Shown: positions 6,268 through 30,193 of the stretch, piece by piece
How positions within the stretch are numbered: position 1 is the first letter of the stretch
How the letters are laid out: the number at the start of each line of letters is the position of its first letter
Source of the DNA: a virus
Lineage: Duplodnaviria > Caudoviricetes
Virus record (IMG/VR): IMGVR_UViG_3300032218_000050
Location: 1-34,446 of that record
Direction: 5' to 3' (one strand)
DNA length: 34,446 bases
Translations under genes and position numbers: made by a program
Notes under the pieces: generated by a model
Database searches by the model: none
Seen by the model: the letters and a program-made list of their open reading frames with translations, nothing else
What the model was told of the DNA's origin: nothing

Positions 6268-6708
6268 TTACTTATCCTCCAAGGCTTGCACCTTTAGTTT
6301 GTTTGATGAGTCGTAAAGTGCCAACTCATCTGGTTCTATCAATTCTTTTTCAATCTTGTCTAAATTTGTTTTATTTGTTTTATGAAAGTTAATGTAAATT
6401 GAATCATTAACAGCCAAAATCACTCTTTTTGTGCCTGCTTTTGAACAAAGTACATCGCCAGCGTTCATTGTTACCATGCCGTTTTCCGACCAAGCAATAA
6501 TTTGACCTTTGGCGCACATAAAAAAATGGTCTTTCTTATGTATCTTGCCAACAACCAACAAGCCTGCTGGCGCTATTAACTTTCGACAATACATTCCACC
6601 AGAAAAGTAATGCTCAGTTTCCAACTCAGGTTGGGGCATTTCACTTATTTCACTCTGTAAACGCTTAATTTCGTCAAGCGTTGGTACATGGTGTTCTGTT
6701 AATTCCAT
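6268..6708 (-). CDS. Cupin-fold (double-stranded beta helix) protein
   Basis: HYFSGGMYCR...PAG...GKIHKKDHFF...G...AGD...AGTKR pattern. Start reassigned to ATG 6708, just after the upstream stop. Confidence 0.65.
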   Translation of the reverse strand: MELTEHHVPTLDEIKRLQSEISEMPQPELETEHYFSGGMYCRKLIAPAGLLVVGKIHKKDHFFMCAKGQIIAWSENGMVTMNAGDVLCSKAGTKRVILAVNDSIYINFHKTNKTNLDKIEKELIEPDELALYDSSNKLKVQALEDK

Positions 6709-6709
6709 A

Positions 6710-6946
6710 TTAGACATTGTAATATGGCACTTTGTATGGCACACCATTTATGGTGATGTTTATGAACCCAACGGGGTTAGCAGGCAAAGTCGCAGAGCCA
6801 GCCGTAGCCGTAGGCGCAGAACTGAAGTTAAGCAGATTAAGGAAGAACTGTTGCCATGCCCTTGTGGGGCGCTTAGTCTGTCCATCCAAGAACTCAGTCT
6901 GTGGGTACGGGTTTAACTGCGTGGTGTTGGAAATGCCCGTAGCCAT
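6710..6946 (-). CDS. Small virion-associated hypothetical protein
   Basis: 78-aa ORF coupled to the tail-hub stop (TAATG); RAWQQFF motif. Confidence 0.7.
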   Translation of the reverse strand: MATGISNTTQLNPYPQTEFLDGQTKRPTRAWQQFFLNLLNFSSAPTATAGSATLPANPVGFINITINGVPYKVPYYNV

Positions 6947-22469: not shown

Positions 22470-22872
22470 TAGGCTTTACAAAGGTCACATTGATGCCCGT
22501 CACCAAAGGCGCACCATCAGCACCCGTAATCTCGGTCTTTGTGCTTTCTCTGTACTTCTTGGGGAATCGTGCCGCCATACTGCGTGACCAGATTGATGCG
22601 TTTAACTTATCGCTATCCTTGTTCTCAACCATCATTGCTTGGGCTATTGACTCCCACCAATCTAACTCTAATTCCTTTGCCAAGTCCATGGCGTGTAAAA
22701 ATTCTGGGTTCTCGTCTCTCCAGTTATATAGCGTCTTTGTACCCACTCCAATTTGTGCGGCAATTTGTTCTACTGATTTACCAATTTTACCGAGTTCAAT
22801 AACTCTTTCGCAGTACATAGGGTCATACTGGCTAGGTCTACCAACTGGGCGTTTTTCTGTTGTTTCAGTCAC
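22459..22872 (-). CDS. terS: Terminase small subunit
   Basis: GRPSQY..YCERVIE, HTH (EQIAAQIGVGTKTLYNW...PEF), EITGADGAPL tail; overlaps the terL start. Confidence 0.85.
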   Translation of the reverse strand: MTETTEKRPVGRPSQYDPMYCERVIELGKIGKSVEQIAAQIGVGTKTLYNWRDENPEFLHAMDLAKELELDWWESIAQAMMVENKDSDKLNASIWSRSMAARFPKKYRESTKTEITGADGAPLVTGINVTFVKPNGE

Positions 22873-24169
22873 GATATTTCACAATCAAGTTTTTTATTGG
22901 AACATCATAAGAATTTAAAGGAAAAATCTTTCTTCTTTCTTCTTCTGTCATTTTCATTCTGGCTTGTGTGGCTCTAGATTCTGCCTCACCAGCCAAATTC
23001 CTATATGCCTCAACTGGTTCAAGCCCAGCCAATTTTCTTAAATTTTCTGCTTGAGTTCCTAATTTATTAACTAAACCATTTTTTTCAATAATGTGAAATT
23101 TGACAGCATCATTTAAATCAACGCCAAATGGGTTTTTATCTGATTTTTCACCTAATTGTGTTTTATATTTAGCAAATGCTTCATCTACAAATTTCTTGTA
23201 TTCTGGTTCTTCTTTGGCTTTAGCAATGTAATAAAGCGCTTCATCAGATGCTTTGTCATGCAAATGGCTCATTTGGCGCTCTATTTCCTTTAGGTCATAT
23301 TTTGCTTGCGCTATATCTGGGGCTATGTTTGATGCGCTTCCACCACGAGCAAAACCTTCTTTTTGTTGTATAGCGTGTTGCAGTTCGTGAAGCATTGCAG
23401 ATTTTTGAGATGTCGTGCCAGGCCCGCTTGCAGTTATTGTTTTAGTAGAAGCATCATAAGTTCCAGATGGGCGTTGCGATGCATATAGCCCACTTTCAAT
23501 ATTTGCTAACTCTGGATAGGCTTTGTAAAGTTCTTCGTGTGTCAATGCTTGCGATGCTGGGCCTGTAAAACTTTGTTTTTCTTTTATTCCGTGATAAACA
23601 TCATCGGTTATGTTTGAACCAACATCACTTATTTCTTGCCGCCATTGCTTATCTGGGCCACGGAAAGTGCCAGTTTCTTGCCATATCTTTTCTGGTTCAA
23701 CACCAGCCTTTTCCATTTCATGTGCTCTTACAGCATTTACTTTGTCAAAAGTTGCTGAGTTCGGCCCCACAAACATCCGCATTGGCTGTGGAGTGACTTT
23801 GGCTAAAGCACCTTCTCCGTACACCATAGCATCGTTTATTGCCCTACCAGCCATCTTGCCTGCGGTCTTGCCGTAAGCGCCAGCAATAGGTGCGGCAAAC
23901 ATAGCGGCTTCTGCCGTATCTTCTGGGATTAAAGGCACATTAGCCTTGCCAACATTGGTTATTGGCTCGCCATAGGATAGTTTGTTAGCCACCCTAGATG
24001 CGGCTGGTATGCCCAATGCTTCTGAGATTACGCCCGTTACTGGGTTTCTATACCCAAACTGTTGCTGTAAAGCGTTTTTGTCTAAGTAATTAAGAAAATC
24101 CGATATATGCCCCATTGTTGCATTACGAGGGGTTTCTCTCATTGACGCTATATCGGAAAGTCTAGGCAT
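22865..24169 (-). CDS. LPD23-like domain plus zincin metallopeptidase protein
   Basis: IWQETGTFRGPDKQWRQEISD, HEELYKAYPEL, HELQHAIQQKEGFARGG (HExxH) and YRNLAGEAESRATQAR. Confidence 0.75.
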   Translation of the reverse strand: MPRLSDIASMRETPRNATMGHISDFLNYLDKNALQQQFGYRNPVTGVISEALGIPAASRVANKLSYGEPITNVGKANVPLIPEDTAEAAMFAAPIAGAYGKTAGKMAGRAINDAMVYGEGALAKVTPQPMRMFVGPNSATFDKVNAVRAHEMEKAGVEPEKIWQETGTFRGPDKQWRQEISDVGSNITDDVYHGIKEKQSFTGPASQALTHEELYKAYPELANIESGLYASQRPSGTYDASTKTITASGPGTTSQKSAMLHELQHAIQQKEGFARGGSASNIAPDIAQAKYDLKEIERQMSHLHDKASDEALYYIAKAKEEPEYKKFVDEAFAKYKTQLGEKSDKNPFGVDLNDAVKFHIIEKNGLVNKLGTQAENLRKLAGLEPVEAYRNLAGEAESRATQARMKMTEEERRKIFPLNSYDVPIKNLIVKYRD

Positions 24170-24786: not shown

Positions 24787-24919
24787 CGTTCTTCTCCAGT
24801 TCGGATAGTGTCCATTGGCATTGCTGTAACGCACCATTGATTTGGTGCAACTGTTGTTCAAGTTCCTTACCTTTGCTGATTAGGTCTTGAATTCTTTGGT
24901 TGATTAGTTCTTTAGTCAT
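24749..24919 (-). CDS. Small coiled-coil protein
   Basis: MTKELINQRIQDL...INGALQQCQW; ATGA overlap with the GroES stop; GAGG RBS. Confidence 0.65.
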   Translation of the reverse strand: MTKELINQRIQDLISKGKELEQQLHQINGALQQCQWTLSELEKNDATQEVDKPESV

Positions 24920-25206
24920 ACTTCCTCTATTACTGCACAAATGTCTTGCCAACTCATTTTAAGGTGACGTTCACCATTTAGGTTTAGTTCCTCAAACTTC
25001 AAGTATTCGTCTTTATAATCCCTAGCAAGCGTTCCAAACATTATGCGGTCACCCACATTAACACCTTGGAATAGCGCATCTTCACCAGCGGCTATGACTG
25101 TACCGATTGATTCGGCTTCTGCCATCGTGCTTGTGTCTAAGATTAGGGATTTGACCCGTAGTTCGGGCTTGACAATGATTTTGTCTTTCAAAGGTTTAAC
25201 AATCAT
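24916..25206 (-). CDS. groES: Co-chaperonin GroES/Cpn10-like
   Basis: KPLKDKIIVK, GTVIAAG, VNVGDRIMF, DICAVI; 96 aa. Confidence 0.8.
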   Translation of the reverse strand: MIVKPLKDKIIVKPELRVKSLILDTSTMAEAESIGTVIAAGEDALFQGVNVGDRIMFGTLARDYKDEYLKFEELNLNGERHLKMSWQDICAVIEEV

Positions 25207-26358: not shown

Positions 26359-26740
26359 GCTCTGCCCCCCAAGCGTTTAGCCATTCCACAAACTCTGACG
26401 CTTGTTCTTTGGTGAATTTGCGTGTTTGCATCCCAAGTTGCACAATGCCATCACCAGACAAATTAGGAATTACTACGCTTGTTTTTATGTCGTTGTCTCT
26501 ACAAAACTGGTCAACCAGCAAGCGTTTCCAACTCTCAGCATCCCATTTAGAGCCTAAGTGTTGGGCTTGTTTGGCTATCTCACCAATCATGGCGTGATAT
26601 TTCTCCTCTTGGTCACGGCTTTTGCTTGCGTCTTTTATCTCTAGCGTTAGTTTTTTGCCAGACGCAAGTGCTTCTTTAACTTTAGGCCATAGCCCTGCCA
26701 TCAGCGCGGTGGCGTTGTCTTTAGTTAGTTCTACTCGCAC
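26333..26740 (-). CDS. ninB: NinB/Orf-like recombination protein
   Basis: KSRDQEEKYHAMIGEIAKQ, WDAESWK, VQLGMQTRKFTKEQASEFVEWLNAWGAEHG. Confidence 0.85.
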   Translation of the reverse strand: MRVELTKDNATALMAGLWPKVKEALASGKKLTLEIKDASKSRDQEEKYHAMIGEIAKQAQHLGSKWDAESWKRLLVDQFCRDNDIKTSVVIPNLSGDGIVQLGMQTRKFTKEQASEFVEWLNAWGAEHGITYSQI

Positions 26741-27153
26741 TCTTGCACCATTACATTTGCGCCAGCATCTTCGGCATATACCTTTTTGATGTGCGCCTCG
26801 ACTATTTGTGAGTCATTGGCATAGACAATTCCCTGCATGGCATCGGTAATACTTTTGTAAACATTATCTATGTCCACTTTCTTTGGAAACTCTAAACCCG
26901 CTAAACAGGCTTCCTTGCGTTTTTTTGAGTATGACGCTGGTATGGCATACCGAAGGTATAAAAACACAGTTAAAGCCCCTTTTAATGGCTCTGTTGCGCC
27001 TATTGCTAGTCTGGCTTTCATTGCTACATGGGTTTCGTAGTCGATTGTCTTGGCATCGGTGTAAGTTTGGACAAACTGACCGCGCCTAGCAAAGCGTGGT
27101 CTGCCCTTGGGTACTGGGTCACCATCAACTGTAAATGTCACTACTAGGCTCAT
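26731..27153 (-). CDS. rusA: RusA-like Holliday junction resolvase
   Basis: PVPKGRPRF; catalytic DIDNVYKSITDAM...DSQIV. Confidence 0.9.
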   Translation of the reverse strand: MSLVVTFTVDGDPVPKGRPRFARRGQFVQTYTDAKTIDYETHVAMKARLAIGATEPLKGALTVFLYLRYAIPASYSKKRKEACLAGLEFPKKVDIDNVYKSITDAMQGIVYANDSQIVEAHIKKVYAEDAGANVMVQECE

Positions 27154-27401
27154 TTAATGCTTTCAGTCGTTGAACAATCAAGATACCGAGAGTAGGAAAA
27201 TCCGACTTCAGCGCTTTTGACATATACCGAGCGTGGTCGATAGTCCCTTGGTTCATCGCCATCAGTGCATAGTGATTCGCCAGATGCTCGACATAAATCC
27301 CCTGTCCGTTCCAAGGCGCTATTTGTTTCAGCCAAGGACACGGGGTGTCTATCTTTTCTTTTGATGCGGTCAAGGATGGCATGGGCTTGCGTTTTTGTCA
27401 T
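27150..27401 (-). CDS. Hypothetical protein
   Basis: ATGA overlaps at both ends (with the GT stop and the rusA start). Confidence 0.6.
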   Translation of the reverse strand: MTKTQAHAILDRIKRKDRHPVSLAETNSALERTGDLCRASGESLCTDGDEPRDYRPRSVYVKSAEVGFSYSRYLDCSTTESIK

Positions 27402-28348
27402 AAAACAATTTCCTTGATTCTTTGGATAGTTGTTTGTTTATCGTTAGCGGCTTTGGCATAAATATCATCTGACCATTTAATTTTGTTTTGTGTTGCATCT
27501 AACATTTCATTTTTGTTTGCAACAATTTGGTCTTTATGGATGTTGTAGCCACATAGCCCTAATGTGTTTTCACATGATTCGTCAAACAAGCAAATAGTTC
27601 CGCTATTCAAGGATTCGTAAAACCGATTGGCCAAATAGTTGTAGGCGTAATGAGTTTTTTCATCTTCTAGGTAAAGCGAAAACCCGTATTTAGATAAATC
27701 GCCTTTTTGTATATCCAGCCTGTTGATGTAACTTGGATTAACTTCGAGGGCATCAATCTTTGGTCTGTTTTTTAAATGGGTCGATACAGTCATACCATCA
27801 AAATACTTTTTAAAATATTTCTTTCGGTCATCACGATATGAGCCGTAATAAATACATTCTTTATTTTTGTTGTTGTCAAATGAGTAGTTGCCAAATACTA
27901 AAGAATTGATATTCATCGTTAGCCATTCGTCTACATACTTCATAACCACTTTGCTGACCTCATGTGGGTGGTTGGCTAAAACTGTGTATTTGCGGCCAGC
28001 CTTTGCCGCCATCCATAGAGTTCTAGGTTCTCCAAGGTTGTATTCATTGGTTACATAAAATAGTTTGGCATTAGGTGATTTCTCAATCCATGAGTAGTCT
28101 GTGTAAGCGTAATGGCTTGCATGGACAAACACAATGGCCTCATAGTCCCCACGCACATAGTCATTTACATCTGGGTAAGACCAAATTAAATCAGCATCTA
28201 ATGCGTCTGAAATCATTTTGGCGTTTTGCCAATGTAAGTTTTCAGCAGGCTTGTCGTTTGATGACTTGTGGCTGTCTATCACCAATATCTTTTTATTAAA
28301 TTCTTTTTTTGGTTTTAGTTCGGCAAATAAATCAAACTGATTAACCAT
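27398..28348 (-). CDS. GT-B glycosyltransferase resembling T4 DNA beta-glucosyltransferase
   Basis: Colinear motifs versus T4 BGT as I recall it: IYYGSYRDDR / IYGGSFRSGQR; NYLANRFYESLNSGTICLFDE / NFITLRVWETMASDAVMLIDE; DYEAIVFVHAS / DYDRLIVVNSS; KLFYVTNEYNL / KIYYLFTDIRL. Confidence 0.72.
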   Translation of the reverse strand: MVNQFDLFAELKPKKEFNKKILVIDSHKSSNDKPAENLHWQNAKMISDALDADLIWSYPDVNDYVRGDYEAIVFVHASHYAYTDYSWIEKSPNAKLFYVTNEYNLGEPRTLWMAAKAGRKYTVLANHPHEVSKVVMKYVDEWLTMNINSLVFGNYSFDNNKNKECIYYGSYRDDRKKYFKKYFDGMTVSTHLKNRPKIDALEVNPSYINRLDIQKGDLSKYGFSLYLEDEKTHYAYNYLANRFYESLNSGTICLFDESCENTLGLCGYNIHKDQIVANKNEMLDATQNKIKWSDDIYAKAANDKQTTIQRIKEIVL

Positions 28349-28584
28349 CAGAAGTTCTCCTTCTCATACCATTGTTGGACAGTTTGAGATACAGGCTTGG
28401 CAACGATAGGGCGCTTGTAGTCGCTGGCGCTCTTTTCCCATTGGTGCTTAGAACACTTAGGCTTATCACCGCTAATGTGGACAGACCAACGATTTTGGCA
28501 ACCAGACACAGAACACATAAGACGCTGAACTTCGTCAAAGCCGTTATCTTGGTTTTGGTTGTTTTTGAAATTAGTTAGTGCCAT
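28348..28584 (-). CDS. Small Cys/His protein downstream of the replication initiator
   Basis: CSVSGC...CSKH putative Zn site; overlaps the rep stop. Confidence 0.7.
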   Translation of the reverse strand: MALTNFKNNQNQDNGFDEVQRLMCSVSGCQNRWSVHISGDKPKCSKHQWEKSASDYKRPIVAKPVSQTVQQWYEKENF

Positions 28585-29329
28585 GGTATTTTCCTTCTAC
28601 AATTTTTGCAAAATTACTGGGTTTAAGAATCCACTCTAGGTCTGCCACAAAAGCGCGACCATCTTTGCTGTTGACCTTGCCTGTCAAGAAACGAGATGTA
28701 CCGATGTGGTCAAAGAACTCTGCAAACCAACCAAGAATGTCTGGTGCGCCTATTTCCTTGGTCTTGGATAGTTCGTCAGCAACCTCACGCCATCTCTGCC
28801 GTAAGTAGCCTTTACGGGCATCGTTCCAAACCTCTACCTTGCGTAGCGTTGGTAAGTGCTTGTGGTAAAGGTCTATGACCCCTTGGTGATTACATTTTGG
28901 TAAACCATTTCCTATATCTGGCTCACCGCTAGGTGGGCTTATAGATATATCTGGTTTATGGTTAATGGTTATTGGTTCTTGGTTATTGGTTGGTTGAACA
29001 TCCGTTGAACGGGCGTTGAACCTTCGTTCAGCAGACGCTTTACCAGCCTTAGACGCTTGTTCAATCTTCGAGTGGTAATGCTCTATTTCTTTGTTGGCTC
29101 TTGGGCTTACAAAGCCATCTGGTGTCGACAAAAAGAATTCGCTAAGAACCGAAAGAACTTCTTGTTCATGTTCGCGCATATTGATTTGCCGAGCAATATC
29201 GCGTTGAGGAATTGGCTTTTCGTGAAGATAGTAAAAGTCCAGAAGCCTGCGGTAAGCACAATCTTCTATGACATTTAAATGCCGTGTGTGGGAAGCATAG
29301 TCCCCAATATTAAATTGATAGTAATGCAT
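28571..29329 (-). CDS. Replication initiator, DUF1376/YdaU family
   Basis: MHYYQFNIGDY..HTRHL...AYRRLLDFYY N-terminus; ADLEWILKPSNFAKIVEGKY C-terminus; internal iterons. Confidence 0.85.
   Translation of the reverse strand: MHYYQFNIGDYASHTRHLNVIEDCAYRRLLDFYYLHEKPIPQRDIARQINMREHEQEVLSVLSEFFLSTPDGFVSPRANKEIEHYHSKIEQASKAGKASAERRFNARSTDVQPTNNQEPITINHKPDISISPPSGEPDIGNGLPKCNHQGVIDLYHKHLPTLRKVEVWNDARKGYLRQRWREVADELSKTKEIGAPDILGWFAEFFDHIGTSRFLTGKVNSKDGRAFVADLEWILKPSNFAKIVEGKYHGTN
28952..29032. repeat. Iteron-like arrays inside rep (candidate origin)
   Basis: TGGTTNN heptamers at 28952, 28959, 28966, 28973, 28980 and 28987; GTTGAAC at 28993, 29004, 29015 and GTTCAGC at 29026 (11-bp period). Confidence 0.75.
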
Positions 29330-29708: not shown

Positions 29709-29755
29709 TATTACATGCCCTAACAAATTGTATGGGGTCTTTTAAAGGAATGATT

Positions 29756-30193
29756 ATGGAATTTGTTTTAAATGATGGTGGTCGCGCAGAGGCTGGTTTC
29801 AAAGGTAAGGCTGGTGACTGCGTAGCCAGAGCCATAGCAATAGCATCTGGCTTGCCTTATACAGAGGTTTACAACGCTCTGGCACAAGGCACAGGCAACC
29901 AACCAGCAGGCAAGCGTGGTAAGCGCCCTGCAACAGCCAACCAAGGCATCACAGTAGGTCGCAAGTGGTTCAAGGATTACATGGCTTCTATTGGCTTTGT
30001 ATGGACACCCACAATGGGTATCGGCACAGGATGCAAAGTGCATTTAGCAGATGGCGAATTACCAATGGGTCGATTGGTTGTGTCTGTTAGCAAACATTAC
30101 ACATCTGTTATTGATGGTGTTGTCAATGACACTTGGAATCCACAACGCTCTACTGGTCGCTGTGTCTATGGCTATTGGAAAAAAACAGACTAA
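29756..30193 (+). CDS. Early protein with possible papain-like Cys-His-Asp triad
   Basis: GDCVARAIAIA ... VSKHYTSVIDG ... DTWNP; AAGGA RBS before ATG 29756. Confidence 0.65.
   Translation: MEFVLNDGGRAEAGFKGKAGDCVARAIAIASGLPYTEVYNALAQGTGNQPAGKRGKRPATANQGITVGRKWFKDYMASIGFVWTPTMGIGTGCKVHLADGELPMGRLVVSVSKHYTSVIDGVVNDTWNPQRSTGRCVYGYWKKTD

Follow-up and report, generated by a model that had tools for sequence, protein, structure and literature searches.

As far as the accessible text of the surveyed literature goes, the phage DNA glycosyltransferases described so far act on a base that has previously been hydroxylated, and 5-hydroxycytosine arabinosylation is reported to run via a thymidylate synthase homologue (PMC13326640). 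Solitary TAGTs were counted in 288 of 753 genomes, and the same source states that T4 alpha-glucosyltransferase (AGT) co-purifies with the T4 clamp and that T4 beta-glucosyltransferase (BGT) did not bind gp45 (PMC13216743). Phage T-dioxygenases are activated by ParBs, ParB-independent forms exist, and a ParB-modifier-terminase gene arrangement has been reported for them (O'Toole et al., PMC13229309). Mom acts alone on canonical bases (PMC13219725). Approximately 65% of phage glycosyltransferase (GT) contigs have no 5mYOX or ThyS neighbours and were deemed less likely to modify DNA (bioRxiv 2023.12.21.572611). The family described here is a direct case for whether such pathway-less phage GTs act on DNA.

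The window, by which we mean the whole stretch of 34,446 nucleotides analysed here, is a 34.4-kb phage record with a completeness rating of 99%. It encodes a P22-like portal and coat, a terminase and lambdoid replication and recombination proteins (O-like initiator, RusA, NinB, ERF and YqaJ), and no DNA polymerase gene was found in it. Gene P0001 (27398..28348, minus strand) encodes a 316-aa BGT-like GT-B glycosyltransferase and occupies a variable DNA-modification slot. It lies between the genes for a DUF1376/O-like replication initiator (28571..29329, minus strand) and a RusA resolvase (26731..27153, minus strand), both recognized by profile matches, with one small gene intervening on each side. 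The upstream flank of the slot is a 78-aa gene (28348..28584, minus strand) whose stop codon overlaps the P0001 start codon as TGATG (28346-28350), and the downstream flank is an 83-aa gene (27150..27401, minus strand) whose start overlaps the P0001 stop as ATGA (27398-27401); from these overlaps and from the slot comparison, both are read as translationally coupled to P0001. An HNH gene is also found near this operon position, together with the initiator, RusA and NinB. The GC content of the P0001 gene (0.362) is the minimum among the 33 window genes of at least 300 bp (mean 0.44, sd 0.032). The first-pass annotation, made from the sequence alone, had described a nearly complete genome with a 316-aa ORF in its replication operon, coupled at both ends and more AT-rich than its neighbours, and this description holds throughout. 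Elsewhere in the window, positions 24916-25206 encode a GroES-like co-chaperonin (PF00166), and positions 29732-30193 encode a 153-aa protein (phrog_3754) that is missing from the relatives compared and whose C...H spacing resembles by eye that of a papain-type peptidase.

Named families give little purchase on P0001. It matches no Pfam family, and PF09198, the BGT family, matches none of 104 diverse family members, of which five match PF13524 weakly. Among PHROGs only phrog_25584 was retrieved (E 1e-3); no match in NCBIfam or PADLOC names the protein, and the PDB returned none by sequence or by profile. The predicted structure is more informative. An AF2 model built from 87 homologues (pLDDT 93.5) has T4 BGT as its top Foldseek match (E 3e-7), with TM scores of 0.61-0.65 for BGT entries versus 0.37-0.52 for cellular GT-B enzymes. 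VIA aligned 284 residues of P0001 with T4 BGT (Z 21.4, rmsd 2.9), followed by T4 AGT (Z 17.1), and an unbiased pass over 48,161 chains left this ranking unchanged. The two nearest folds are therefore both base-flipping DNA glucosyltransferases. The GT-B enzymes of lipopolysaccharide, cell-wall and protein glycosylation (GT4, Gtf3), of which the first-pass annotation had named the lipopolysaccharide and cell-wall ones as hits that would speak against a BGT, are not the nearest, since all remaining GT-B enzymes reach at most Z 15.1 versus 21.4 for BGT. Likewise, HHalign joined the 104 diverse members to 42 BGT-family proteins end to end over 299 columns (probability 98.6%, E 6.6e-16), and the initial identification as a T4 BGT-like enzyme is thus supported by both structure and profile.

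The same alignment confirms that the motifs run colinearly with those of T4 BGT, as the first-pass annotation had proposed: GSYRDDR and NRFYE match the UDP-site arginines and the R-x-x-E motif, and the acidic residue of TNEY falls at the catalytic-base position. Specifically, E102 (28043..28045, minus strand) aligns with the BGT catalytic base D100, and the position is acidic in all 104 rows (E in 69, D in 35). R172-x-x-R175 (27824..27835, minus strand) corresponds to BGT R191/R195, a nucleotide-diphosphate-binding pair by analogy, with R172 conserved in 104 of 104 rows and R175 in 103. R242-F-Y-E245 (27614..27625, minus strand) corresponds to R269/E272, and both residues are invariant in the 104 rows. 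D229 aligns with BGT D258 in the HHalign register, and N237 is the equivalent of BGT N264 when counted back from R242. In BGT, R191/R195 and R269/E272 are donor diphosphate and ribose residues, and a D100A structure of BGT exists. The acceptor loop is altered, the BGT-invariant N70/G73/G74 (N70-F-F-G-G loop) giving way to S78-x-Y80 in the family. Swaps also occur in the sugar and nucleobase pocket, where the near-invariant E22 of BGT becomes N42, G257 a conserved E228 and G214 H or S, and H233 is a conserved residue new in the family. W112, K116 and R119 (BGT W109/K113/R115) do not vary within the close family (87/87), but they do in the wide family. The net charge is -2 for P0001 versus +6 for T4 BGT, although the medians are reversed (family +7, BGT family -2). 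Mean column identity across the 104 rows is 25%.

The family comprises 328 proteins at 90% clustering and 636 clusters at 50% identity. In IMG/VR, 340 stretches matched, and 131 loci with 132 family ORFs were examined. Atlas neighbours are 94-100% viral and their clusters are unnamed, with automatic GT names. The family is thus large, viral and without a name in Pfam, NCBIfam or PADLOC. Among cultured phages, a member is encoded by Cronobacter phages S13 (gene AVV44_gp057) and LPCS28 and by Citrobacter phage Ci1 (E 1e-10 to 2e-9), and the S13 protein used as a query weakly matches annotated beta-glucosyltransferases. The phages that carry the gene extend from lambdoid ones of 34 kb to a T4-like phage of enterobacteria. 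In an unrooted tree of 47 proteins, which carries a long-branch warning for S13, the family including S13 is separated from BGT by one fully supported branch, and because the two lie on opposite sides of that branch, the tree places the family as a sister of BGT, outside the BGT family proper. A scan of 185,579 prokaryotic species genomes for LANRFYE[AS]L, limited to this single exact motif, retrieved no relatives, and a prophage or host-defence role is accordingly unsupported. The accessible portions of PMC8056088 and PMC11659082 mention S13 without DNA-modification data. The main texts surveyed, largely outside subscription journals and with 10.64898/2026.02.25.707755 and PMC13390438 among them, returned no description of the family or of canonical-base glycosylation by a BGT homologue; members may be listed in the datasets of Pyle and O'Toole.

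P0001 had been regarded as an orphan with no visible source of a hydroxymethylated base, and a wider search agrees. Homologues of T4 gp42 were found by tblastn in 47 of 59 true-BGT loci (within ~10 kb) versus 0 of 131 family loci. For genome-wide profiles, 44 carrier records were picked from the 131 loci by length and diversity and a T4 control was added; completeness reaches 90% in only 6 of the 43 carriers from IMG/VR, and many loci are near-duplicates. PF00303 matches 42 of 50 BGT records and detects the T4 gp42 control (E 4e-17), and the sole full-length ThyA-like gene among the 44 carriers is that of S13. None of the 44 matches PF00145 (C5 methyltransferase, the 5mC route) or PF12851 (TET/JBP), and PF12851 is likewise absent from 32 additional records (25 carriers and 7 TAGT records, one of them repeated). 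This profile overlaps 83-95% of phage dioxygenase contigs and so misses 5-17% (PMC13229309). In the window itself, 56 Pfam-scanned ORFs, including a few spurious frames, yielded no thymidylate synthase homologue, TET/JBP or methyltransferase. Whole-record searches of the window found no gp42 homologue and no TET/JBP, the control Mycobacterium phage Cooper gp2 being detected (E 4e-8). That Cooper gene (L241:785-1753) is annotated as a queuine tRNA-ribosyltransferase and matches Tet_JBP (E 4e-6).

Two hiding places for a hydroxymethylating gene had been suggested at the outset, the missing junction and the small hypothetical genes. The window ends fall within a holin and an M15 endolysin, and the holin is directly upstream of the endolysin in 66 of 80 related loci. 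From the six closest relatives, the missing junction would be ~236 bp (range 217-733), taken up by the end of the holin and the start of the endolysin, which leaves no room for a hidden gene unless this phage departs from its relatives. Nor does a small hypothetical qualify as partner: P0001 is the only window gene common to all 15 carrier records and loci compared, and no other travels with it. A cupin gene at 6268-6747 was set aside as a hydroxylase on account of its tail-module position and tail PHROG matches; its homologues turn up in two phages that lack the GT gene, and no carrier compared has one.

The contents of the slot itself point to DNA. In a close relative (G044, 92% complete), both flank genes are present with a C5 methyltransferase between them, and in G055 the slot holds a family allele of 24% identity. 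In 48 distinct contigs where the two flank genes are both present, the slot is empty in 14 and filled in 34, the occupants being a C5 methyltransferase (11), Mom (8), TAGT (7), a distant family allele (5), a C5 methyltransferase with a CmoA-like gene (2) and an ABC-GNAT (1). All non-family occupants belong to DNA modification or, in the case of the ABC-GNAT, are linked to it, accounting with the family for 34 of 34 filled slots. One slot allele of the family is located at L254:5074-6090. What the complete genome G094 has in common with the window is limited to genes of replication, recombination and the terminase and a few others; its virion module is unrelated, yet the same slot holds a family allele.

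Other features of these slots were recorded. Those of L288, L302, L308, L354 and L371-L373 hold a single TAGT (PF20691) gene or a pair of them, accompanied by an acidic leader peptide or domain, some of the leader peptides bearing clamp-like motifs similar to that of P0001; TET/JBP was not detected in TAGT-slot phages, the complete G101 included, which constitutes a second orphan DNA glycosyltransferase puzzle. In L295 (736-2504) and L296, a C5 methyltransferase gene precedes a CmoA-like one (TIGR00740, E 1.5e-20), a pair that probably forms a carboxymethylcytosine pathway. The slot C5 methyltransferases of L250 (10669-11619 and 10683-11582), L304, L306, L309, L312 and L313 overlap long second-frame ORFs of 150-299 aa, some of which begin with a QMSMF motif. 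L387, L388 and L358 have methyltransferases with N6/N4-type motifs located downstream of the 78-aa flank gene, and are outside the 48-contig count because one flank is unmatched. L334, L338 and L340 have a 162-aa membrane protein gene upstream of the 83-aa flank gene, presumably resembling the preQ0 transporters of deazaguanine clusters.

A second genomic setting involves ParB. A ParB-like gene is immediately upstream in 22 of the 132 family ORFs, with terminase genes commonly next, and none is directly upstream of P0001 in the window. The order ParB-TET-TerS-TerL in Mycobacterium phage Cooper matches the ParB-GT-terminase arrangement, and by gene order the family GT takes the place of the primary modifier in ParB-terminase modules. 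In the window, a gene for a 434-aa LPD23 protein (22865-24169) is immediately upstream of the terminase small subunit, a position held in the relative L104 by ParB and a family GT (the pair at L104:6030-7566), and this represents a second variable slot. Two further loci (L100:6412-11293 and L116:6-4514) have a family member and a TGT-like gene (phrog_887, E 1e-6), which follows the GT, within a phage type IV CRISPR-like operon. Also present in these operons are csf1, cas11, csf2 and csf3, a cas6f-like gene in L100 alone, and, ahead of the GT, a ParB C-terminal element that stands by itself. No CRISPR array was found near either locus. Type IV-B loci usually carry CysH. It is possible, from gene content, that these operons direct RNA-protein-guided DNA modification.

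The N-terminus of P0001, MVNQFDLF, is a flexible extension of low pLDDT, in which residues 4-8, QFDLF (28325..28339, minus strand), resemble a beta-clamp-binding motif, the consensus being of the QL[S/D]LF type. The pattern Q.[DSNA][LM]F occurs in 8 of 16 alignment rows with the extension versus 0.08 expected by shuffling, these rows being related and not independent sequences. The strict motif is found in 0 of 17 ParB-adjacent members and 7 of 60 others. Residues 1-32, modelled as a complex together with E. coli DnaN, gave a weak signal (0.59 versus 0.00 for the best control; 97% contact agreement between runs, partner pLDDT at least 48). Of the 78 solved complexes 51 reach the mark applied, as do 2 of 108 mismatches, and scores of 0.60 or below include only 5 of the 78 solved complexes, yet all 4 passing mismatches. 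Clamp-peptide complexes are a textbook type, and the DnaN score may reflect likeness to known pairs.

Given a slot shared with DNA modifiers, the ParB-terminase modules and the clamp-like motif, the substrate of P0001 is very probably DNA. We hypothesize that P0001 is a base-flipping enzyme: an unmodified base of phage DNA that has just been replicated would be turned out of the helix to receive a sugar from a host nucleotide-sugar, the donor possibly being other than UDP-glucose. E102 would serve as the general base of an inverting transfer, like D100 in BGT, and the linkage may run through a base nitrogen. The QFDLF tail could hold P0001 on the beta clamp of the host, another clade may rely on a ParB-like partner beside the terminase, and the sugar would protect certain sites against host nucleases. 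On the strength of the sister relationship to BGT, the lack of hydroxylating genes among those searched for and the swaps with methyltransferases and Mom, we lean towards such a stand-alone, post-replicative enzyme that would act directly on ordinary DNA. Cytosine N4 is our single best guess for the acceptor atom, a doubtful one made by analogy, since in BGT it is the C4/C5 edge of the flipped cytosine that faces D100. For the wider proposition of one-step canonical-base glycosylation in a widespread phage family, with loading by the host clamp, a ParB partner or a type IV CRISPR-like complex, we see about an even chance.

Any such modification is probably partial or sequence-limited. In the window the observed/expected ratios of AGCT, GATC and CCGG are 0.0, 0.0 and 0.02, as in the methyltransferase-carrying G044, and ACGT and GGCC are also strongly depleted, a pointer to host restriction systems; the palindromes avoided by carriers G026 and G005 are different ones. 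Because the window is still nearly devoid of AGCT, GATC and CCGG, nothing in it suggests blanket protection of the T4 type, although recent acquisition of the gene could also explain the persisting avoidance. Oligonucleotide bias in the window revealed no target base.

The alternative that survives best, although we consider it unlikely, is a BGT-like O-glycosyltransferase acting on a hydroxyl-bearing acceptor (5hmU, 5hmC, 5-hydroxy-C, deazaguanine or other) provided by the host, a co-infecting phage or an unrecognised enzyme. Some phage enzymes do escape TET profiles (PMC13229309). The catalytic acid is retained, the TGT-like gene after the GT in L100 and L116 could supply a swapped base, and the known TAGTs need a hydroxyl acceptor, so that the orphan TAGTs which fill the same slot without TET suggest that such an acceptor may go unseen. 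Nevertheless, the GT alone among window genes is common to carriers, and because these span lambdoid to T4-like phages, the precursor would be needed in many unrelated hosts. Moreover, methyltransferases act alone on canonical bases, as does Mom, and both are slot mates of the family.

A sugar placed on a backbone oxygen of DNA (phosphate, or a nick or end hydroxyl), blocking exonucleases or end-sensing defences, is distinctly unlikely. It would keep O-glycosyl chemistry while making a precursor base unnecessary, and it would suit the remodelled acceptor loop, the persisting restriction-site avoidance, the operon position beside the initiator, RusA, NinB and HNH genes and the terminase-adjacent slot. 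However, the two nearest folds belong to base-flipping enzymes, the slot mates modify bases, and the invariance of W112, K116 and R119 in the close family also argues against it, these residues being variable in the wide family.

The initial annotation had left the choice between a one-gene DNA-glycosylation system and a BGT fold redirected to an acceptor such as the Ser/Thr-rich virion proteins. The former is now much better supported, since the slot is common to stand-alone DNA modifiers, and redirection to a non-DNA acceptor (virion fibres, a host defence protein or a cell-surface receptor) appears improbable. Ser/Thr-rich tail proteins are indeed encoded in the window, Gtf3-type protein glycosyltransferases come next by Foldseek E-value, orphan phage GTs were judged less likely to act on DNA by Pyle et al. 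(bioRxiv 2023.12.21.572611), some distant members are near sugar-nucleotide or other GT-like genes, and nucleotide-sugar enzymes are encoded near the GT in L115. But the Gtf3 enzymes reach only TM 0.44-0.50 and Z 15, versus Z 21 for BGT, the gene is located in the replication operon, outside the tail module, and it swaps with methyltransferases and Mom, pairs with ParB and carries the clamp-like motif; G094 keeps a family allele in the slot beside its unrelated virion module. A catalytically idle protein or decoy, binding DNA (modified or not) but transferring no sugar, for which the lack of an evident hydroxylated acceptor might speak, is highly improbable given the invariance of the acid at 102 and of R172, R242 and E245 in 104 rows of so low a mean identity.

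If unmodified DNA is glycosylated, as we favour, phages common in freshwater would turn out to carry a new base modification. It would amount to a one-gene anti-restriction trick, mobile between unrelated phages, and possibly to a single-gene, sequence-selective DNA-labelling enzyme.

Among known systems, T4 BGT (PF09198) is closest to P0001, with which it shares a full-length GT-B fold, the D100-equivalent acid and equivalents of R191/R195/R269/E272, D258 and N264. Unlike T4 BGT, to which its identity is 15-17%, P0001 has neither a PF09198 match nor an accompanying dCMP hydroxymethylase, and the family lacks the N70-F-F-G-G loop and E22, conserves E228 and H233, and has a clamp-like motif or a ParB partner. 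T4 AGT, a retaining enzyme, is the second-best fold at Z 17.1, although its identity to P0001 is 8-9% and it needs 5hmC; it offers a precedent for clamp-coupled DNA glucosylation (PMC13216743). The ParB-modifier-terminase architecture and the division into ParB-dependent and -independent subclasses recall the 5mYOX(TET/JBP)-associated GT clusters (Pyle et al., bioRxiv 2023) and the ParB-dependent T-dioxygenases (PMC13229309). Unlike in those systems, the GT itself follows ParB here, and a dioxygenase or methyltransferase was not found. The glycosyltransferase of phage HY126 (PDB 9iqz) is also a phage GT-B enzyme but falls outside the family (Z 11.7, 10% identity, rank 37); we take it to be part of a guanine-glycosylating system, which would set a precedent for a canonical base. 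The solitary TAGTs (PF20691) have an unrelated GT-A fold, and like P0001 they are orphan phage homologues of DNA glycosyltransferases for which no first step is recognised and which turn up in the same slot. Mom and the orphan DNA methyltransferases of phages are unrelated to the family in fold and chemistry, but they are single-gene, post-replicative modifiers of canonical bases and occupy the same slot in relatives.
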